Assembly: GCA_951406725.2 (NCBI GenBank)
Contig: OX597823.1
Location: forward strand, 70,866,001-70,930,000
DNA: 64,000 nucleotides
Direction: 5' to 3'
DNA from: Octopus vulgaris
Lineage: Eukaryota
A program made the translations under genes and the position numbers. The notes under the pieces were generated by a model. The model made no database searches and was not told where the DNA came from. It saw only the letters and a program-made list of their open reading frames with translations. Shown here piece by piece: positions 37,389-63,384 of the stretch (position 1 is its first letter; each line of letters starts with the position of its first letter).

Positions 37389-40300
37389 TCAGAATTTGGG
37401 CACTATGGCCCACTCAAGTAGAGAGTTATTGTTTACAGAGACATATCCGGGTGTAGGGGGTTTATCCGGGATTTCTTGAAGGAATCTGTCCAAAGACTTC
37501 TTGAACCCTATAGGGTCAGTTTCTGTTTTAATGTGTTTTGGTGTAATGTTAAAGAGAGCGGGGCCAATTGAGGTGAAATAATTGTGCCGTATTGTTGTTA
37601 TGAGATGAGAGTGCGATTTTTGTTTTGGGCGGATGGCACGGGGCCCAAGCCTTGGATGTACCTTAAAGGTGATGCCAACATCATTTGGGCAATGCTGATG
37701 GAATATTTTCCACATCATGCAGATGATGTAGCGCTCACGACGACGTTGGAGAGAATAGAGTTTTAGCTTTTCTAGTCGACCCCAATAGTCGAGGCCTGTC
37801 ATGCCATCTATCTTTTTTGTGATTGCCCTTTGAGGTGCTTCGACTTTTATGATACCTTGTATTGTGTGGGGAGACCACAGTGGACAACAGTATTCAAGGT
37901 GGGGTCGGGCAAAAGTGGAGAAGAGAAGGATAATGGTGTGGATATCTCTCGACTGGAAAGTTCTGAGAATCCAGGAACACATTCTGCGGGCCATGTCAAC
38001 TTTGGTGTTTATATGAGTGGCCCAGCTTACGTTGTTGTCCACAATTACTCCCAAGTCTCTGATGTTGTTGGACGCCGTGAGAGTTTCACCTGAAGGAAGG
38101 GAGTATGGGAGTTTCAGGGCATCCTCTTTTCCAAAGTGGATTAGCTCAAATTTATCCTCGTTCAGCAGCATATTGTTTTTTTCTGCCCATTGGATAACAG
38201 CCAGTAGATCTGACTGAAGGCATGTCCGGTCACTCGCCTCATTTATGACCTTCTGTAGCTTGGAGTCATCTGCAAAGATTTTTATGTTGCTGTGCTTGAT
38301 GATGTCATTAATGTCATTAATGTAAATGATGAAAAGAAGTGGGCCCAGCACAGTGCCTTGCGGAACGCCACTACTGACTTTGGCTGGGCTTGATTTTACC
38401 CCTTCAACTACAACATGTTGAGATCTGTCTGTCAGGAAACACTTAATCCATTTCAGTAACTTTCCAGAGACACCAATGTTGGATAGTTTTTTCAATAGGA
38501 TCTTGTGATCGACCCTGTCGAAGGCCTTACTGAAATCAAGGTAGATGACATCGGTGTTGGAGCCCTCTCCCAAAGCTCTCAAAATGTCCTCAAAGTGATG
38601 CAGGAGCTGCGTTAGGCAGTCCCTTCCATTACGGAACCCATGTTGGTTGGAGATCAGCCGTCTGTTGCTTTCCAGAAATTGGGTTATTTGAGATCTCACC
38701 ACCCTCTCAAATACCTTGATGATATGAGAGGTGAGTGAGATCGGACGGTAATTCACTGCAAGGGACTTGTTTCCCTTTTTGAAAACTGGGACAACAGACT
38801 GGGACAGAAGGTTTTTTGGAATATAGCCAGCATCCAGTGAGTTTCTCCACAGATTAGCAAGGGGAGATGCAAGTTGGTGTCGACACACCTTCAGGACACA
38901 AGCAGGGAACCTATCGGGGCCTACTGCTGAATTGTGTTTTATTTCGTTTATCGCCGCTAAGACATCAGGGGCACTAAACGTTATGTCCGATATAGTGTGT
39001 TGGGGGTTGACATTACTGATACAGCCCAGATCGGCCATATCAGGATTGCTGAAAACAGAGCAGTATTGTTTCTGCAGTATCTCGGCCATGGATTTGGCAT
39101 TATCTTGGAGAGTGCCAGTTTCGTCAATTAGAGGGCCTACAGTGGAGACAGTGACCCTGCGTTTCCTCGCAAATGAAAAGAACACTTTGGGGTTGAGTTT
39201 GATTTTTTCAATGGCCCACTTCTCCTCAGCTGATCTTTGGTTATTGATGAGGGACTTCATGCATTGTTGGAGGTTATATTTTTTTGATTCAAGCAGTGCG
39301 ATAGCCGTCGAATGTGTGTGTTGCTGTTGGCAGTACTTTAGTTTGTTAATTTTTTTGTTTGTTCTTTTTATTTTTCTGATAATGGTTTTTCTGTTTTGGG
39401 GGATTCTGCACTTTTTGTTCACAGGTCTTGGTGGGGAGTGTTTTGCACATATGTCTGTGACGGTGTCTACAAAGATCTGCCAAGATGTTTTATGGTTGGT
39501 GGAGATGTGTGTATGTGTAAAGGACCAGTCAACATTTGATAGCTCGTTCCTGATTGCATCCCAGTTGGCTTTATGGAGATCCATGTTGTCAAATGGGTGG
39601 GCTGGAGGAAGGTCACTAGGATTAGCTTTCGGCTGGTGGAATTTCATGTTACAGAGAACCATGTCATGGTCTGAAAGAAGGGTTTTTTCCACTGTAACGT
39701 TATGTATAGTGTTAGTGTGGTTACTAAACACTAGGTCCAAAATGTTCTGATGTCTTGTTGGTGCAAGGACAAGTTGGGACAAGAAAAACTCATTCGTAAA
39801 GTCGAAAAGTGACTCTGCTGCTTCTTTGTCAGCGGTTGAGGCGGGAGTGCTTGGTTTCAAACAGTTTGTAGTCCAGTCAACACAGGGTAGATTGAAGTCT
39901 CCCATCATGAGTATGTTGCTAGAATGGCACTGTTGAATAAAGCACTTAATGCTGTTGAGGCATTCTTTAAAGCACAGTATGGGTGTTTGGGGCGGCCTAT
40001 AGAGTCCAATTACTGTCAGATCATTGGCTTTGTTGTGCACGGTGACTGATTCACAGTAGCCGTTGGAGAATATACTATTTCCATCTGCCGTAAATGAATC
40101 ATGCAGGAAAATGGCAGTTCCACCCTTCCTCCTGCCGATACGATCCGCGCGGATGGTTGTGAAATTCTTCACTCTCACTTCGGCTTCCAAGTGGGAGTTG
40201 TCAAGGTGGGTCTCAGTGAGAATGAAGAAAGGGATGTGGTGTGAATGGTTACCAACCCAGTCTTCAATGAATTGGACCTTCCATTTTTGTGCATTGATGG

Positions 40301-40628
40301 AAGGGCTGACACCTTGTGCATTGAGTAGGAATGTGGAGGTTAGTGTAGTGGCTGGTTTTGACTGTTGCAGGGGGCTTGGATTTTTTGTGTGTGTTAGTGG
40401 TAGCAATGTGGGGAATTGGTGCACTGGGGTAATAGCATAGGATGGTGTTGAGTGATGGCTAGAATGTTTTTGTGTATCTCTTTTGCCATGTTCAACATGG
40501 CTAAAAAGAATTTTCCTGCTTAGGGAGCAGTTTTTGGCTGGAGGTGTGGTTGCACTGTTGGATAGGGTTGTAGTTTCCACTTTTGTTGTTGTTGTTTTTG
40601 TGTCTTCCTGAAAAGACTGGACCAGCAT
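37389..40628 (-). CDS. LINE ORF2: APE endonuclease plus reverse transcriptase (1079 aa)
   Basis: APE motifs LTETHL, GDFNLP, LDLVF, SDHD; RT motifs YRPISLTS, QHGFR, LDFSKAFD, GVPQGTVLGP, FADD; CR1-type C-terminus RPHLEYC..WSP, LYSLQRRR. Confidence 0.97.
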   Translation of the reverse strand: MLVQSFQEDTKTTTTKVETTTLSNSATTPPAKNCSLSRKILFSHVEHGKRDTQKHSSHHSTPSYAITPVHQFPTLLPLTHTKNPSPLQQSKPATTLTSTFLLNAQGVSPSINAQKWKVQFIEDWVGNHSHHIPFFILTETHLDNSHLEAEVRVKNFTTIRADRIGRRKGGTAIFLHDSFTADGNSIFSNGYCESVTVHNKANDLTVIGLYRPPQTPILCFKECLNSIKCFIQQCHSSNILMMGDFNLPCVDWTTNCLKPSTPASTADKEAAESLFDFTNEFFLSQLVLAPTRHQNILDLVFSNHTNTIHNVTVEKTLLSDHDMVLCNMKFHQPKANPSDLPPAHPFDNMDLHKANWDAIRNELSNVDWSFTHTHISTNHKTSWQIFVDTVTDICAKHSPPRPVNKKCRIPQNRKTIIRKIKRTNKKINKLKYCQQQHTHSTAIALLESKKYNLQQCMKSLINNQRSAEEKWAIEKIKLNPKVFFSFARKRRVTVSTVGPLIDETGTLQDNAKSMAEILQKQYCSVFSNPDMADLGCISNVNPQHTISDITFSAPDVLAAINEIKHNSAVGPDRFPACVLKVCRHQLASPLANLWRNSLDAGYIPKNLLSQSVVPVFKKGNKSLAVNYRPISLTSHIIKVFERVVRSQITQFLESNRRLISNQHGFRNGRDCLTQLLHHFEDILRALGEGSNTDVIYLDFSKAFDRVDHKILLKKLSNIGVSGKLLKWIKCFLTDRSQHVVVEGVKSSPAKVSSGVPQGTVLGPLLFIIYINDINDIIKHSNIKIFADDSKLQKVINEASDRTCLQSDLLAVIQWAEKNNMLLNEDKFELIHFGKEDALKLPYSLPSGETLTASNNIRDLGVIVDNNVSWATHINTKVDMARRMCSWILRTFQSRDIHTIILLFSTFARPHLEYCCPLWSPHTIQGIIKVEAPQRAITKKIDGMTGLDYWGRLEKLKLYSLQRRRERYIICMMWKIFHQHCPNDVGITFKVHPRLGPRAIRPKQKSHSHLITTIRHNYFTSIGPALFNITPKHIKTETDPIGFKKSLDRFLQEIPDKPPTPGYVSVNNNSLLEWAIVPKF

Positions 40629-41619
40629 TACTGCAGCATGGTGTGTTTCTATTTTTATTGTTATTCAGGTTTGTGTGTTGGCTTGAGGCCCCGTTTCTGT
40701 TTGTGCGTCGGGTCCCTGGAAGATGAGTGAAGGGACAGTCACTCAGTAGACATGTTCTCTCACGTTGGGAATACCGGCAGATTTTGGGACTCCGAGTTGT
40801 GTGTGTTTTGAATTTCGATTTACTATTTGGTGGTGTTGATGTTATTGTGGGATGCGTGCTTTGGCCTTGGCCAGTAGTGCGTCTAGTGCCGGGTAGATGC
40901 GTGAAGATGCAGTCACTATTTGTGCAGAGTCTCTGGCGCAGTGAATAGCGGCATATTTGGGGATTTCTTGTTTGTGCCGTGGGGGGCGCATTCTGCTTCC
41001 TATGTTTCTTTAAGTTTTTGTTACTGCAGTAGTATTGAGGTGGTGATGTGGGGGAAGAGGGCAGTGGTTTCTTATTTGGTTTTCTGTTGGTATTTTTGGT
41101 GATAGAAGACGATGGTGGCAGCGGTGGTGATGATGATGATGATAATTGTGGTGGTTGCTGTGAGAGCGGTGAAAAGATACTGGCATTTAGTGAATCGTCT
41201 AGTAAGCTAGAGTTGAGGAGTGGCTGTTGTTGTTCTTGTTGCTGTGGCTGTTGTTGTTGTTGTTGTGCCTGACCGATGTCAGGGTCAGCCATTGTGTTGG
41301 GAACCAGGAGTGGCTCATTCTGTTGTTGTTGTTGTGGCTGCTGATTTTCTAGCTGTTGTTGTTCTTGAACTGTGAAAATATGTAGAAGCTTTTCATAATG
41401 GCCTCTTATCAGTTTGAAAGATACTTCGATATGTTTCAACTTGCTACGAATCTGTTTGACGGATCGTGTGTTGACCACTTGTGATGTTTTTTCGGCAATC
41501 TCATTCAAACACAAGACATTTAGATTTTCTGTTTGGGAAAGAGAGAGCCATGTGTTTATTAAAACATCAATTTCGTTATCAGACCAATTTCGTCTGTTGC
41601 AGGCCTGCAAGTTAGTCAT
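40501..41619 (-). CDS. LINE ORF1 (372 aa): Myb/SANT-like N-terminus, Q/P/S linker, two CCCH zinc fingers
   Basis: RRNWSDNEIDVLINTW...RSVKQIRSKLK; CRYSLRQRLCTNSDCIFTH and CRYSQRERTCLLSDCPFTH; lies directly upstream of ORF2. Confidence 0.8.
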   Translation of the reverse strand: MTNLQACNRRNWSDNEIDVLINTWLSLSQTENLNVLCLNEIAEKTSQVVNTRSVKQIRSKLKHIEVSFKLIRGHYEKLLHIFTVQEQQQLENQQPQQQQQNEPLLVPNTMADPDIGQAQQQQQQPQQQEQQQPLLNSSLLDDSLNASIFSPLSQQPPQLSSSSSPPLPPSSSITKNTNRKPNKKPLPSSPTSPPQYYCSNKNLKKHRKQNAPPTAQTRNPQICRYSLRQRLCTNSDCIFTHLPGTRRTTGQGQSTHPTITSTPPNSKSKFKTHTTRSPKICRYSQRERTCLLSDCPFTHLPGTRRTNRNGASSQHTNLNNNKNRNTPCCSNAGPVFSGRHKNNNNKSGNYNPIQQCNHTSSQKLLPKQENSF

Positions 41620-41940
41620 GTTTGTTTTTCTTTTGTTTGTTTTCCTTTTGATTTTTGAAAATATATATATTCTTTCTTGGGAGTTAAAGAAGTGTATATA
41701 TATATAAATGTTCTCTCTTAAGGGTGTGAGTTTTTGATTATTTGGTTGTTTGAGGATATTAAAAGAAAAACAGGTGTATATAACAATTTGTAGTTAAATG
41801 AAAACGTACTTACGGGTTTGTAGGCAAACACGTGGTTACAAATATATATATATTTAAGGTCAGTTAGTTTTGAAGCTGTGTAGCTTGCTACTGACTCGGG
41901 AGAGAAACAAATAGACGTCCGTCCAGTTCAACAGTTAATC

Positions 41941-44633: not shown

Positions 44634-44666
<33 letters not shown>

Positions 44667-44835
44667 ACATAAGGGACTAAAGCCATCTGAATATGGCTAG
44701 GGACAGGGCAGGGTGGTGGGGGTGTTACTGTTGCATTTAGCCCCAGGCGAACATCGACGTCACCAGAAAGGCTCGACACCGTCACGGTGCCCTAAACCTG
44801 CAAAGGGAGGTAATTCCCCGATGAAGCGGAAACCA

Positions 44836-44881
44836 CACACGGACCATGGTTTCAAGGTGTATTGCCTATCATCGGCGTGTG
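44836..44881 (-). ncRNA. Hammerhead variant (CCGAUGA core), array copy 1
   Basis: cacacg CCGATGA t agg caataca cct t GAAA ccatgg TC cgtgtg. Confidence 0.65.
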
Positions 44882-45195
44882 GTAGGCCTCCGCTTCCTCG
44901 ACGAATTCTCCCTCTGCAGGATTTTCTTATATAGATTTTCAAGCAAAATACATTTGCTGATTTCGAAAATCTGTTCGAAAGCAATAATAATTCTCTAAAA
45001 GGGATATAGACAGTAACTGCTCGATAACATAAGGGACTAAAGCCATCTGAATATGGCTAGGGACAGGGCAGGGTGGTGGGGGTGTTACTGTTGCATTTAG
45101 CCCCAGGCGAACATCGACGTCACCAGAAAGGCTCGACACCGTCACGGTGCCCTAAACCTGCAAAGGGAGGTAATTCCCCGATGAAGCGGAAACCA

Positions 45196-45241
45196 CACAC
45201 GGACCATGGTTTCAAGGTGTATTGCCTATCATCGGCGTGTG
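45196..45241 (-). ncRNA. Hammerhead variant, array copy 2
   Basis: Identical to copy 1, 360 nt away. Confidence 0.65.
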
Positions 45242-45652
45242 GTAGGCCTCCGCTTCCTCGACGAATTCTCCCTCTGCAGGATTTTCTTATATAGATTTTC
45301 AAGCAAAATACATTTGCTGATTTCGAAAATCTGTTCGAAAGCAATAATAATTCTCTAAAAGGGATATAGACAGTAACTGCTCGATAACATAAGGGACTAA
45401 AGCCATCTGAATATGGCTAGGGACAGGGCAGGGTGGTGGGGGTGTTACTGTTGCATTTAGCCCCAGGCGAACATCGACGTCACCAGAAAGGCTCGACACC
45501 GTCACGGTGCCCTAAACCTGCAAAGGGAGGTAATTCCCCGATGAAGCGGAAACCACACACGGACCATGGTTTCAAGGTGTATGTATTTTGCTTGAAAATC
45601 TATATAAGAAAATCCTGCAGAGGGAGAATTCGTCGAGGAAGCGGAGGCCTAC

Positions 45653-45698
45653 CACACGCCGATGATAGGCAATACACCTTGAAACCATGGTCCGTGTG
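45653..45698 (+). ncRNA. Hammerhead variant, array copy 3
   Basis: Same motif on the plus strand; predicted cut after C45692. Confidence 0.65.
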
Positions 45699-46012
45699 TG
45701 GTTTCCGCTTCATCGGGGAATTACCTCCCTTTGCAGGTTTAGGGCACCGTGACGGTGTCGAGCCTTTCTGGTGACGTCGATGTTCGCCTGGGGCTAAATG
45801 CAACAGTAACACCCCCACCACCCTGCCCTGTCCCTAGCCATATTCAGATGGCTTTAGTCCCTTATGTTATCGAGGAGTTACTGTCTATATCCCTTTTAGA
45901 GAATTATTATTGCTTTCGAACAGATTTTCGAAATCAGCAAATGTATTTTGCTTGAAAATCTATATAAGAAAATCCTGCAGAGGGAGAATTCGTCGAGGAA
46001 GCGGAGGCCTAC

Positions 46013-46058
46013 CACACGCCGATGATAGGCAATACACCTTGAAACCATGGTCCGTGTG
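46013..46058 (+). ncRNA. Hammerhead variant, array copy 4
   Basis: Same motif; predicted cut after C46052. Confidence 0.65.
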
Positions 46059-46272
46059 TGGTTTCCGCTTCATCGGGGAATTACCTCCCTTTGCAGGTTT
46101 AGGGCACCGTGACGGTGTCGAGCCTTTCTGGTGACGTCGATGTTCGCCTGGGGCTAAATGCAACAGTAACACCCCCACCACCCTGCCCTGTCCCTAGCCA
46201 TATTCAGATGGCTTTAGTCCCTTATGTTATCGAGCAGTTACTGTCTATATCCCTTTTAGAGAATTATTATTG

Positions 46273-46315
<43 letters not shown>

Positions 46316-46368: not shown

Positions 46369-46371
<3 letters not shown>

Positions 46372-53780: not shown

Positions 53781-56700
53781 CAAAATACATAAATTAAATT
53801 CATAAATTACAAGGAAAATTGTAAATTGTTTTGGCCCCAACAATGAGCTCCAGATTCGATTCCATTGCTTGTCATTTTCGGTAAGAGCACCGTAGGAACT
53901 AAGGCTCTAGCAGGATCTGGTTTCGAACCCTCTAGCTCATTGATTTTGCTCAGAACTAATTTTTGCGTACAATGAAAATAAATAAGGAGGAGATTTGTCA
54001 TCGAAAAAGCGTTGCTCTACCAACTTGTGCTATTTGAACGAGCTATATGAATTAATAAATAAAAAGTTAAATCCCGTACTTTTTGTATTTGTCCATTTGA
54101 CATTGGATTCGCTTGTGATAATTTTACTTAATAAGATGCTGATAGTGTGAGTTCATACATGACTTTGGAAATGTGAAACTGAATGAATATATGTGGTGGT
54201 GGTGGTAATAGTGGCAGTGGGAGATATATCAATTATTAGTGTGCAATTCATCTACATAAGAATATTAATACTAATAATACTCTTATTATCCAACATACAC
54301 AAAAAATGCTTCCCCCTAAATTAATTGGCACAGTCAGCCAATCTGTCAGTCAATTTGTAACTCTGACACTGACGTGTGGCTTAGTGTAACTGTAAAATAA
54401 ATACGAGAATGTACAGGTGCTTTATTGATAGCATAAACGAAAGACTTATTATTGTTCTGATGTTATACACAAAAAGAGACATCAAAACTCATGGTGAGAG
54501 ACAAATACACTGAAATATAATATACATGCGGAAATATAAGAACAATTTAGAAGTTTTGATAGTTTAACGGAGAAACAATGAAATGAAAGATAGCGATTGA
54601 AATGGAAAAGTAGGAATTCTATGTCACAAATCTTGTCTATTGTAATTGGACGGTAATATAATGATGGACATAATTGAATGTAAAGGCGTAGAACAAATGA
54701 AAAGTCTACTAAATTTGGATTCATTTGATCGGGGGAGAACGAAAGTCGTAAATCGCAAAGAAAGCAAGAGAATGACATTTAGAAAGTATAACAATTCACG
54801 TTAATCAACAAAAGTTCTTTAATAAAGAAGAAACAAAAAGCAAATGTGATTGCCTTGTTAGAAAGCCGTATGCTATGGCATTTGTCTCGAACGGTATTTT
54901 CATATGAATGCTTGGTGCATAAAGGCACAGAGATATATCGAAGCAGACGAGAATCGTCTGATATGTGCACCACAACTGCCAGATCACGTGATTTCAGTGT
55001 GCTGCACTTCTTCAGTGGCAGGCGGCCGGTGACCGCATGCTGCCAAATCTCGATACCACGATATATAGAATATCAGTGTTTTTAGTCAATGATGTCACAA
55101 ATAGCCAGCAGGCTTATCAAAAGAAGTAATTATTAGCGATATAAGCACGTTTATGATATATGTCAGTGCTTTTATGGACCGTGCGTTTATACGAGAGGAC
55201 TTCACAAAGCGAATAATACAATATTCAATTTCTAACAAGACATCAACGAAAAGGTGTGAATATAAAGATTGACTTTTGGTACTAATACTGCTTCCATCGC
55301 CAAGAATTATTTTTCAATAAGCCTGTTGCGGGGACGGTAGCACCGTATCCTCATGGCATCCTCCTCAAAAAGCGTTCAAGGGCCAAATAGCAGTGTTAAA
55401 AAAATACTTCAAACTTTTCATTCAATGCTCGAATAACTCTGATAAATTGCATTGCAGGACATTCCATTCGTTTATCAACTGAAATCACAATCATTTCGGC
55501 CCCAACCTTACTCCAGGAAGCGATGTTGGAGAGCGTCCATGCTATCAGAAAAATGTGTTTTCTTATGGATCACGCGGTTGTGTGCATTTATTTCTCCGCT
55601 ATTCATACCGTGATCACAACCAAACTAGGAATGACTTTGACATTTCCAGTCCCACAAACGTTATTTTCTGCTATTTACTTCCGGTTTGTTTTTCATCAAT
55701 GCCTCTGTGACATCTTTGATGAAACATTATGTATTTCCTTTTCCTGTTTCTGAATCATTACTAATCGATCTTCACTGCATTGCTTTCTTTACGCATCTAT
55801 GTTGTAGTCTTTTGTTCTCCTTCTCAAAACAACAGAGAATACCATGGTGCTTATTCTCTTTGGCTTGCTAGTGCTACATTGCTGTTTTAGATAATCAACA
55901 ACAACAATACTCAAACTACATATGTTATCAGAACGTATCTTTTCTTTATAAATATGTCCACAATGGGATTTAACATCGAATATAGTTCATGCATAGAGAT
56001 TCGTCGCCTATTGTTTCTAAATTTGTATTATTTCATGTGTCAATAACTGCAGCCGATATCTCAAATTTGTAATTAATTAAATAGTATATATATCAAATTA
56101 ATCCCATTAGGAATATTTATTTTCTTGGATGCCGTTCGACTTGTAAATGATTATAGTTTGGAGTGACAGAAACCCTTTCGGCAATGCGACTTTGGAACTT
56201 AAGAATAATTATCACGATTCATATCCTAAGTCATATATTTTCAAGTATATAATAATTTAAAGTATTTAGAATTGCAGAAATTTCTACATGTGCATTTCGA
56301 AATTATCACTACTTCAACTGCTGGTCTTGGTTTTAAAATATGGACAATTCAAGTCAAAATTTGAAGTATTCAAGACCTTCAAGTAATATCTGTGATTTTA
56401 TATCAGTCTCCACGTAGGTATATGAACAGTATGTAGATGCTTCTTTGATATTAGTGTGGTAAGAAACAATTACGACAAAATTGTCAGAGATAGAAATAAA
56501 TTTCTATCTGTAATTCCTTTAATTTATGGAGAATGGTGATTCTTTAAATCGCCCCACTCTAGCAAATTGTTTTAATGAACTAGAAGCTAATTTTGTGTAG
56601 CTGTTTATTATTTATAGTTTGTTAAAGTTTTCCATACAGCATATTCCTCTTTCTGGCTCTTTTTAGATATTTTAGCTAAATTGTTGTTATGTAACGAAAT

Positions 56701-58770: not shown

Positions 58771-60112
58771 AGAATGATAAAGTAATCATTTAAAGCATTG
58801 TAAAAACTGACTCAAACACATGTTTCTGTTTTCAGAACTAGGTAATTATTTATTCATTAATTACTAATAAATCTCTAGAGTGACAAAATGAAATCCACTG
58901 TGTTGTATTGCTTCTGCTTCTGGGTAGTACTGTAACAAACACACAAACACCCTACAGATCAGCATAAAGTAATTCACAAAGACATACCAAATATTAGCCT
59001 ACATATTTTAGCTCTCCTCTCTATTTCTTCTACTGTACTGTAGCATTTGTTGATCTGTGAAGACCATTCCGAAGTCCGTCATGCAGATCAAACGAATAAT
59101 AAATATTTTTTACATTTTTTATGTGTAATTATATATATATATATTGCTTGAGTTGAAAAGGTATCAACCTATTGACAAAATATAGGCAACAATAACTTGA
59201 CGGCGCCGCATTCTGCCTCTTGTCAAGATACTTAAATAGTTCTGGTCTAGTTGTCTTAGAAATAAAGTAGCATGATTTATTCATGTACTTACGAGCGATT
59301 AAGTAGTTGTCTCTAAACGTTAGTAGATTAATCGAATAGTCATTGAATTCCAATTTTGTTATGCCTGTCTTTTTTTTATTTTCACAAAGTAATTCTTTGT
59401 AATGCTACACAGTGAAATTACAAATATCAGAATTTATAATTAACTATTTAACTTATTTACAGCAAGAATGACCGAACAGTAGTTGCAAAAACATCATTAT
59501 GTACACTGTCCAAACGCCGCATATTTTGTGAGCATGGAGAACTGAGCTGGAATTTTTCGAAACACAAAAACTTTGATTAATGATAATCTCATGAAAAAAC
59601 TGTTCTTTCAAACGTGTACTGTATAGAATTCTTTGGACATACAAAGGGCATTTACAAACCTCTGTTACACATGACCTTGCTTAAATTGATTTCAGTTAGC
59701 AGTCACCCTGATAGTTCATTTAGATAACCTTCCAATAAATCATGTATTCTGTAGCCTAGCTTTTTGCTTTCTATTTCTTAAATTACATAAAAAAAAACAA
59801 CAGAAAGTAAAGTGAACGAGACCAGTGAGTGGGACAGAAGGTTGGACACACCATTAAATTTCGCGACATTTATAAATACCATTATGTATTTTACCAATAA
59901 AATACATTATACAAATGGAGTAATAACAAGCTAACTCAACTCCGGTAAACAAGAGAGCGTCTAGACAGAAATTTCATTTCATTATTATATTTAACACCTT
60001 AACATACACAGATTTCCTGATATAGTTTAACTACATCAGTTTATATACCAGAGTGAAGCAAAACGTATAAAATGTTATGAGGTTAAACTAAGTTATAATA
60101 TTTTGAATCCAA

Positions 60113-60191
60113 TTAATACGTACGTTTCAGATAATTTCGCAATAGATAAAAAAGAGAATTTAATTTCTTACACAATATCTTCCTCAGTTAA
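60113..60191 (-). ncRNA. Minimal type-I hammerhead ribozyme, canonical core
   Basis: ttaa CTGAGGA agata..tatct GAAA cgtacg TA ttaa. Confidence 0.75.
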
Positions 60192-60679
60192 ACATATCAA
60201 AATATTTTGCTATGCGTAAGAAATGAAATCGTTTTTTTTTTATCTGTTGCACAATTATTTTAAACGTATGTATTACATGTACACGAAATATTGTTACTTA
60301 GTTTAACTTCATAGGAATATATGTCGTGTACAAGCTAACTAGTACTAAATCCATTCACACGTATACTATAACAAGGGTTTGGCATTTGGCATGTTCTTTT
60401 TGTTCTATATGACTCGAGTCGGGAATTCGGGTAAAGTACATCACCTCTAAGCTCAACACGACTTACACACACACACACACACACATACACCCCCACACAC
60501 ACACATACACCCCCCCGCACACGCACGCACGCATGCATTTATTTAATTGTAAATGATACAAATACAAGATCTGGATAACATGAAGTACGACATGAGTTAT
60601 GTTGCGTTCTCGACTCACTATCAATATATTTTCTACTTGTGTAATATATATCATATATATATATATACATATATATATA

Positions 60680-60988
60680 AACAATTGCAGCGTGGAAGGT
60701 GTTTATAAGCCATTTAAGAAACACACAAAAGCCGTTCGATTCACTTCAACATTTAAGTTTAATTTGTCAAAATATTTTCGTCGCTAAAATCCGCGACCTG
60801 TTCACTGACAAAGTCCGTGCGGCATCTCAGAGGCAAATATTTTGACAAATTAAACTTAAATGTTGAAGTGAATCGAACGGCTTTTGTGTGTTTCTTAAAT
60901 GGCTTATAAACACCTTCCACGCTGCAATTGTTTTCGTTTCAGCACACGATCTCAGATCAAATTACTTGCTATGCGAGTACATCTCCGT

Positions 60989-60990
<2 letters not shown>
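60680..60990. mobile_element. Fold-back family G element in (TA)n
   Basis: 60680-60830 is followed by an inverted partial copy from about 60835 plus the tail. Confidence 0.85.
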
Positions 60991-61024: not shown

Positions 61025-61226
61025 ATCCAAACATGAAAACACAAAGAGAAAACACAACAACGCGAGGACGTGGAACAAGTATAGTATTATTGGACGCTCA
61101 GGAAAAGAAAGAAAGAAGGAGGATCTAACGCTTCGAGCGGAGCTCTTCGTTAGAAAAATAGAAAAAGAAAATTTCCAAGGAAAGGAAGAATGAGAAAGAA
61201 AATCGTCAAGGATACACACGTGGTCA
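61020..61226 (-). repeat. Family D repeat in (TA)n
   Basis: Matches 42129-42335. Confidence 0.85.
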
Positions 61227-61463: not shown

Positions 61464-61479
61464 TTATATATATATATAT

Positions 61480-62148
61480 AATTCGTAAATAAAGGCAATC
61501 GAAAAAATTTCTAATGCCAAATTTTTCGATTGCCCTTATTTACGAATTGTTTATAAATTTAACCTTTAAAGGTATTTTTTAATATGCTGGCCATTGATAA
61601 ATTTTTTTTCGAAAAGAATTTTTTTCGAAAAATATTTTATCCTACATTTGATATAAATTTAAGCGTTCACTTCCGGACTCTTACACTCTGTGAGAGCCTC
61701 AGTTCAAATCGCACGTGTCTCGAATGGGCTGGAGTATTTCTATTTTGGACGTATTTGGGGTACTTAATTGTGCTCATGATTTAGTGTTTACTTCTTCCAT
61801 GGGTATGAGTAAGTATCTCATTTATTTCTTTTGCCACATGTATCACTGAAGAAGGGAAGGGCTGTTATAAGCTAACCCTGAAATCGGTCCGATATGGTAA
61901 TAATGGAATTTTTTAGAAATTTCTGTCGACCTTTTTTCGAGTAGCGTGCGTATTGTGAAAAAATTATATGGTTAATGGACAACATGTCCAATTTTTCGGC
62001 ATATTTGGCATTAGAAATTTCTTCGATTGCCCTTATTTACGAATTGTTTATAAATTTAACCTTTAAAGGTATTTTTTAATATACTGGCCATTGATAAAAT
62101 TTTTTTCGAAAAGAATTTTTTCGAAAAATATTTTATCCTACATTTGAT
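61480..62148 (+). mobile_element. 497-bp terminally redundant element with inverted 5' piece and hammerhead
   Basis: Direct repeat about 61525-61652 / 62022-62148; 61480-61522 is the reverse complement of about 62003-62045; (TA)n flanks. Confidence 0.85.
61841..61899 (+). ncRNA. Type-I hammerhead ribozyme, canonical core
   Basis: tatca CTGAAGA aggg..ccct GAAA tcggtccga TA tggta. Confidence 0.8.
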
Positions 62149-63384
62149 ATATATATATATATACGCGGCGCGCGCACTAATGCCAAACAGTGAGAATGAG
62201 TGCTCAACGCCCAATTGCTGGGTAAATTTTCTTTATTTGTTGATTAACAGGTCTACCAATGGATTCATGTAAAGAGAATCTCTTGATTCCCTTTACCGGA
62301 ATCTCTTGACAATTATCAATTATTATAGGAACACTGGCACCCGTCTCCATTTTGGATGCAAATTCACGAAGTTACACGAAACTGTGCAACTTCTCGGGAT
62401 AAATAAATATACAGAACATGGGAAGTAATAGCATATCTTAATCACTGTTTCCTTTGCATGAGTCCTGAAATCTTTGCAAGAAGCTGCCTTCACCTAAGAT
62501 CAATTAATTCCTTACATTGTGCGAGAACGCTCGTGCACGTCCAAATCTATAATATAGATACACATGTTTGTGCACACGCATATCATACAAAATATGTGCA
62601 GTCATATACAAACACTCACACGCTCATACACAAATACTAATACACACATACACACACACAAACACATATACATATACACACACACACACATATATATGCG
62701 CTCACACACACATACATATACATATAACACATGCGCATATGCATTATGTGATTTGCTCATATTTGATTATATGCACAGGTTTTATGCCAAACTTGATGGG
62801 GAAGTGAATTCATAAGTTTGGGTATATATGTATTTTTCTCTGTGATGTTATTTCACATAATAGCTCTATAATAAGCAAATCCAGCCGAAGTTTAAGTGGG
62901 CAGATGACTATTACGGATAATTTTCATATAGTGCACATAATCGAATAATAGGTGAGGGATCATCTTTGGAATTTCAAAGTATGAATCGTAGCTTGTGAAT
63001 GCAAAGTATGAATCGTAGCTTGTGCATGCAAGAGGAGAAGCTATCCACCCTAATATTAAATTGTTCATTGTTGATGTTATGATAAGAAGCCAGCTGTTGT
63101 GTATATCCTTCTTTGAAGATGCTTTTCCTCATTCCAATGATTATCTCGTTCCGTTCAAATCTGTAATCTGGCCTTATACATTAATTCTTTCTTCAAATAC
63201 CTATTGCTCAGACGACAGCTACCTGGAGATCTACAATTACAAGATCTTCTGGAATGCTCCAAATGATATTTTTTATTGTGGCTGAGAATGATCGACCCTC
63301 TCTGTTTGGGATACAACGAAAGCAAACTTTGATCGTATTTATCGTGCAGATCTTGAGCTTTTTATTTGAGTGAGGGATGTGGTT

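Follow-up and report, generated by a model that had tools for sequence, protein, structure and literature searches.

Two fixed ends in a dispersed hammerhead-bearing repeat family of Octopus vulgaris: a probable retrozyme insertion and its proposed origin

The window analysed here is a stretch of 64,000 nucleotides of Octopus vulgaris (GenBank assembly GCA_951406725.2, contig OX597823.1, positions 70,866,001 to 70,930,000, forward strand), and the coordinates given below are positions within it. At 61480-62148 a repeated unit with a hammerhead motif and a short inverted piece lie between TA tracts. The question raised by this locus is what kind of element it represents and how its two inverted arms came to be joined. 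We consider it quite probable that the copy is an insertion of a protein-free, 497-base hammerhead non-LTR retrozyme, in which the reverse transcriptase (RT) of a Penelope-like element (PLE) copied the same RNA, probably a circle, from two starts.

The copy and its family

The copy consists of two arms joined head to head (Table 1). Within the main arm a direct repeat is found with a spacing of 497 and 97% identity over 135 columns. The arm contains 1.27 turns of a 497-bp unit, close to the 1.25 turns proposed in the original prediction; the terminal redundancy noticed there is also real, but it extends over about 133 bp and not about 125 bp. The unit has a GC content of 33%, and its longest stop-free frame is 73 amino acids. 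The inverted short arm, recognised earlier as a 43-bp inverted piece at the left end, is the reverse complement of 62003-62045 with 41 of 43 positions identical, and both private alleles of the main arm are present in it. The flanking TA tracts were likewise correctly described. The word cap, which had been applied to the inverted piece, is misleading, since in the loci of the family this piece is a variable second arm and no fixed cap is seen.

Table 1. Features of the copy at 61480-62148 (unit positions are numbered from 61519)
Feature	Position	Strand	Basis or remark
Left (TA)n target tract; terminates a neighbouring high-copy repeat	61465-61479		sequence
Inverted short arm (A arm), ending outward at fixed site A; covers unit positions 485-497 and 1-30	61480-61522	-	
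Overlap of 4 nt (microhomology) at head-to-head junction	61519-61522		family overlaps mostly 0-3 nt
Main arm (B arm), ending outward at fixed site B; non-coding 497-bp unit, 1.27 turns	61519-62148	+	
First copy of terminal redundancy (partial earlier turn)	61519-61652	+	self-alignment
Type I hammerhead ribozyme motif; predicted cut after A61894	61834-61906	+	core search, alignment, folding
Second copy of terminal redundancy; contains sites A and B	62015-62148	+	self-alignment
Tail of about 100 nt, from site A (about 62045-62047) to site B (about 62146-62148)	62046-62148	+	
Palindrome of 45 nt, imperfect (predicted hairpin), immediately 5' of site B	62093-62137	+	second occurrence at 61596-61641
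Right (TA)n target tract	62148-62163		sequence

A DNA search for homologues returned 3,199 candidates, 40 of which were scored. An exact search with an 18-nt motif gave 904 matches genome-wide (439 and 465 on the two strands), other exact patterns gave 492, 211 and 80, and a looser core pattern gave 1,662; the controls gave none in each case. The copy is one member of a dispersed non-coding hammerhead family. The 215 loci that were analysed were all picked by pattern. A first set of 88 was taken from the first 100 places of the 492-match pattern, with one duplicate dropped and three places skipped, and a second set of 127 from new places among part of those listed for the 1,662-, 904-, 211- and 80-match patterns, with segmental duplicates retained. 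As a locus was picked only if one of its arms included the hammerhead region, short arms are under-represented.

In these loci 342 of 397 segment ends fall into two windows, 165 at site A (about unit position 31) and 177 at site B (about unit position 132), and 294 of the 342 abut TA (152 of the A ends and 142 of the B ends). The 5' ends of the arms are scattered. Permutation of the homologue ends, an analysis proposed with the original prediction, is not found, and permuted ends of the kind expected from random copying of a circle are ruled out by the two fixed sites. There are 142 head-to-head pairs, and in the 109 with both ends classed (the other 33, with an end outside both windows, being excluded) the combination is A+B in 102, A+A in three and B+B in four. 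The A+B share is 37 of 41 in the first set and 65 of 68 in the second (p 4e-23 against independent choice). The copy is itself an A+B pair, its A arm being 43 nt long, and the two-end insertion geometry is not confined to this locus. A literature search that covered few subscription papers found no paper stating such coupling.

The unit wraps onto itself in the 50 of 342 arms that are longer than one turn. The longest arm measures 942 nt; none exceeds 994 nt, that is, none has two full turns. Two tandem hammerheads occur in 10 of the 215 loci and in 10 of the 342 arms. In a subfamily of about 73% identity the same circular order and both ends are retained (12 loci). Pieces along the whole unit were also found in contigs of six runs, guessed to be RNA or unlabelled, which are uninformative on strand, level and circularity.

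The likeness of the copy to an unrelated 360-bp array, pointed out earlier, is confirmed for the layout. At 44664-46274 two head-to-head arrays of a 360-bp unit lie between TA tracts, with ends 43 nt apart, and share nothing with the 497-bp unit beyond AT-rich scraps of 23 nt (best E 0.027). The units of this much younger family are 99-100% identical, with several turns per arm, and their hammerhead-like motif has CCGAUGA replacing CUGANGA. Another two-armed head-to-head insertion between TA tracts occupies 60679-60990, with 104-bp arms (98%) of which the right is about 55 nt longer; its end recurs at 46369, and it seems to belong to a third family whose two ends are fixed. The inverted arms at 60067-60322 (87 bp, 78% complementary) may represent an earlier insertion of this kind.

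The predicted hammerhead

The hammerhead core is intact and of type I, with CUGAAGA at 61846-61852, GAAA at 61880-61883, a palindromic stem III at 61883-61893 and A61894 in position H17. The original assignment of a canonical hammerhead is thus sound, and the predicted cut was placed at the correct position. Rfam at gathering scores gave no match anywhere within the window. For comparison, 112 of 118 distinct homologous motifs were aligned, six with truncations or large indels being left out; some of the aligned rows came from a pattern that itself requires the core. In this alignment 94.2% of the cells in the stems are paired, versus 26-40% in slid controls. The stems covary: changes on both sides are seen in 11 of 21 pairs, a count inflated by relatedness, and both stem II and stem III change from one subfamily to another. 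Of the two loop bases needed for a full palindrome in stem III, one is kept in 106 and the other in 110 of the 112 rows. Among 96 motifs from loci picked outside the core, 76 have an intact hammerhead.

The five pairs of atcgg/ccgat, which had been taken as a real stem III, leave a loop of 1 nt that is forbidden in ViennaRNA. A stem of four pairs with a GUC loop is predicted at 0.0 kcal/mol as a hairpin and has a predicted pair probability of 0.0 in the 74-nt ribozyme, while two such strands are predicted to form a duplex at -13.9 kcal/mol. In a prediction without tertiary contacts, the active fold of the 74-nt motif is 6 kcal/mol less stable than another one in which the core is paired. A palindromic helix III and dimeric cleavage are described as the norm for animal type I hammerheads in the available text of PMC4209133. 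It is likely that the palindrome of stem III suits a dimer, i.e. a double hammerhead, as judged from these folding energies. Monomeric cleavage of the predicted ribozyme is possible, yet it is not the reading favoured here.

The copy had been considered the best candidate for monomeric self-cleavage. This view is not retained: the predicted fold does not favour it, and a single hammerhead cannot cut out a 497-nt monomer, so that the copy would be a dead end for circle release. At least two consecutive units are the criterion for an active element in the preprint bioRxiv 10.64898/2026.07.22.740005, whereas the copy has one hammerhead only and is therefore a monomer derivative. One full turn folded as a circle has a predicted z of -6.3 against 60 shuffles, with 65% of the bases paired.

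Two other motifs of this type were seen in the window. A minimal type I hammerhead at 54975-55022 (minus strand) is intact, with a palindromic stem III and no adjoining ORF. At 61095-61165 (minus strand) there is a degenerate, minimal hammerhead-like motif with an altered core, and the end of its host repeat recurs beside other loci (for example, L039).

Origin of the two arms

The mechanism that we propose can be outlined as follows. The source copies would be those with two hammerheads, which would be transcribed and would then cleave themselves, the likely form being a double hammerhead joined by the palindromic stem III. The cleaved monomers would be ligated to give a 497-nt circle. A PLE-like protein would cut both strands of a TA tract. 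Priming on one target strand would be at site B; on the other strand it would be at site A, which lies 101 nt upstream. The two cDNAs would extend for variable lengths, for which strand displacement would be needed, and would be joined head to head through short microhomology.

Self-priming or folding back, either of one cDNA or of an antisense template, could also have produced the inverted piece, as in the model argued by Arkhipova et al. 2013 (PMC3846280, available text), and so could a local DNA rearrangement after insertion. We regard such an origin as improbable. It would fit the palindromes of the unit and the few long overlaps at junctions, most of which have 0-3 nt, as well as one junction (L085) that lies inside the 45-nt palindrome. 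However, the outer ends are fixed and unequal, and either arm can contain sequence absent from the other. Mirror-image junctions, with the inner ends of the two arms at most 15 nt apart, occur in 10 of 102 pairs, near the six expected by chance; a long A arm is combined with a short B arm in 17 pairs and the reverse in 26. Since matching inner ends are rare and either arm may be the longer one, neither was copied from its partner by fold-back. An anticorrelation of the arm lengths (rho -0.39) is gone in the 24 pairs with both arms long and is a selection artefact.

The proposal that both arms were copied from the same RNA draws on variants shared within insertions, for which 114 insertions were compared (119 loci, 5 duplicates dropped). 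Divergence within an insertion is 3.5% between turns (47 pairs) and 3.1% between arms (50 pairs), while the median between insertions is 6.5-6.9%. Values below this median were found for 44 of the 47 turn pairs and 48 of the 50 arm pairs, with the nearest other insertion usually equally close. At sites diagnostic for subfamilies the arms agree in 402 of 443 cases and disagree in 41, and random pairs reach 54% agreement. Private alleles are shared at 10 per 5,910 sites between turns, 10 per 6,992 between arms and 16 per 355,042 between insertions, so that alleles unique to an insertion are about 30 times commoner between its own turns or arms than between insertions. In the copy, the alleles at unit positions 11 and 25 are found in one of 113 and none of 104 other insertions, respectively, and they are present in both turns and in the inverted arm. 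Two RNAs transcribed from a single source locus, or gene conversion at a later time, would equally give shared variants.

Hammerheads of different subfamilies lie 250-500 bp apart at L242 (G000:C4:14156932 and 14157181) and L068. What appears to be one insertion at L242 has arms that seem to differ in their stem II variant, which departs from the rule of one template.

It might be argued that the copies are 5'-truncated end pieces (pLTR and tail) of an overlooked coding PLE, as such elements typically show TA targets, a tail on one side and inverted arms (PMC8557442, PMC3846280, available text) and PLE coding sequence lies nearby in 9 of the 215 loci. This explanation is largely refuted and highly improbable. 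Long arms wrap round the unit and do not run into an ORF, none of 85 free 5' flanks has a common body, and the 10 shared flank pairs are short partner arms or unrelated common repeats with different break points. In three of the loci near PLE sequence (L086, L118 and L281) a TA tract separates the element from the PLE, the remainder being judged by coordinates. The outcome named in the original prediction as speaking against it, that homologues are fixed pLTRs of a coding PLE, was not encountered: in the loci examined no copy is joined to a Penelope RT and GIY-YIG ORF between pLTRs.

Coding PLEs are present in the genome. One GIY-YIG search, with Hydra-type PLEs outside its reach, gave 148 scored matches among 6,136 candidates, and in 50 PLE loci no sequence kinship with the unit was found; the single unit match near these loci is a neighbouring insertion. 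Young PLEs with an intact RT and GIY-YIG frame of 781 aa exist in copies that are 99% identical. Copies of this family have two end sites, both in TA and separated by about 40 nt, which an inverted arm pairs at L154, and there is a cysteine motif upstream of the endonuclease, a feature reported for the Neptune and Nematis clades (PMC8557442, available text). It has no common sequence with the 497-bp unit, and a short likeness at site B (ATCCTA..TTA, then TA after a hairpin) is too weak to count. The 4.7-kb copies of this young family at L150-L158 (e.g. G000:C16:20835300-20841500), many with the intact 781-aa ORF, have an upstream region that is long and, near their end, a hammerhead-like motif of non-canonical form; the family was likely active recently. 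The 1,091-aa ORF of the window was considered as a PLE and rejected. Its AP endonuclease and RT identify a LINE (37389-41793, minus strand), and an upstream frame of 430 aa has weak Myb/SANT and CCCH matches.

The form of the template has to be considered separately. Of the arms that reach the hammerhead cut site, 234 of 242 pass through it and eight end there. Cleaved linear monomers, for which a pile-up of arm ends at the cut would be expected, are therefore not the template. The read-through is also what an uncleaved linear multimer of genomic tandems would give, copied by the same two-start PLE insertion, with no circle and a minor role of the hammerhead in vivo. We think this unlikely, though it deserves serious consideration. 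Ribozyme mutants of an anole PLE insert normally and the main substrate is unprocessed RNA (PMC11167929, available text), and 8 of 9 Xenopus retrozyme dimers are without cleavage in vitro (bioRxiv 10.64898/2026.07.22.740005, available text). Moreover, a test for collision on a circle is weak: an A arm would meet the start of B after 396 nt, and 10 of 46 A arms end there versus 5.3 expected (p 0.034), or 5 of 23 versus 3.2 in paired arms alone (p 0.21). B arms ending at the start of A number 6 of 89 versus 4.2 expected, without a pile-up. At L200 and L219 stuttered short repeats were observed at the 5' end of the A arm, at unit positions 133-149, the place at which an enzyme primed at A would run into site B.

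Against a linear multimer, no array of at least three units was found among the matches listed (the first 100 of 904, the first 100 of 211 and all 80 of the copy's subfamily). Contig C1 makes up 8% of the genome and has 78 matches, from which roughly the genome total is obtained by extrapolation, and this leaves no room for a large assembled master array; an unassembled one is possible as a template source. Without regeneration, 5'-truncated daughters would shorten in every generation, yet several subfamilies persist and keep covarying ribozymes and a strong predicted circular fold. The absence of arrays of at least three units from these matches, together with the few loci with two hammerheads, favours the regeneration of circles by few copies over a master array. 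The template was probably a circular RNA, as judged from the family and not from the copy itself.

More tentatively, and with somewhat less than even confidence, we suggest that one PLE dimer acts on a single 497-nt circle, the cDNAs from A and B both rolling through the ligated ribozyme junction. If this is true, the A+B rule and the private variants would explain the one-sided tail and inverted repeats of Penelope in general. The family would then spread as a pool of circles that the few percent of two-hammerhead copies keep renewing.

Comparison with known systems

The class of element is already published, and the copy is an ordinary, probably dead-end daughter. In LINE-1 twin priming, one RNA primed from both target strands gives a 5' inversion. 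The present family differs in that the second start is fixed and not due to chance annealing. The abutment of classical twin priming, with the B arm stopping at the start of A, is not observed, and 81 of 102 B arms continue past this position.

Non-LTR retrozymes were defined, and PLEs proposed as their mobilisers, by Cervera & de la Pena 2020 (PMC7229834) and Li, Clavereau & Pollet 2026 (bioRxiv 10.64898/2026.07.22.740005), both cited here from their available text. The family resembles the metazoan members in its type I hammerhead, its non-coding tandem unit without LTR or protein, a GC content below 45%, a strongly self-paired predicted circle, its co-occurrence with PLEs and the dispersed monomers and dimers. 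The unit of 497 nt lies above the range of 170-400 nt in the former source and inside the 51-972 bp of the latter. In contrast to metazoan non-LTR retrozymes, no long arrays are seen among the matches listed and no homology to PLE pLTRs in 50 loci. Those retrozymes are expressed as monomeric linear and circular RNA, whereas the present family is known here from DNA. The insertion ends and head-to-head arms described here are absent from the available text of both retrozyme papers.

Insertions of endonuclease (EN)-bearing PLEs are described with an inverted 5'-truncated copy and a one-sided tail of 30-40 bp (Craig et al. 2021, PMC8557442; Arkhipova et al. 2013, PMC3846280; available text). The head-to-head arms, one-sided tail, 5' truncation, partial tandems and microhomology junctions of the family are similar, and (TA)n targets are shared with the Neptune, Hydra and Naiad clades of the same sources. 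It differs from these insertions in having no ORF, a tail of about 100 nt and a unit that repeats on itself.

The closest functional comparison is with the anole Poseidon PLE in vitro, in which two internal RT starts define the tail and both target strands are cleaved and extended (Frangieh et al. 2024, PMC11167929, available text). Two starts and AT-rich targets are found there as well, and its protein is a predicted dimer. However, its two strands are alike in start site and no coupling is reported in that text, while here A and B are combined in 102 of 109 pairs. The present family provides data on the way in which tandem and inverted structures with a one-sided tail are formed by PLEs, and on retrozyme insertion. 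The coupling of A and B, the signal of a common template and the read-through of the cut site are predictions for the existing in vitro PLE system.
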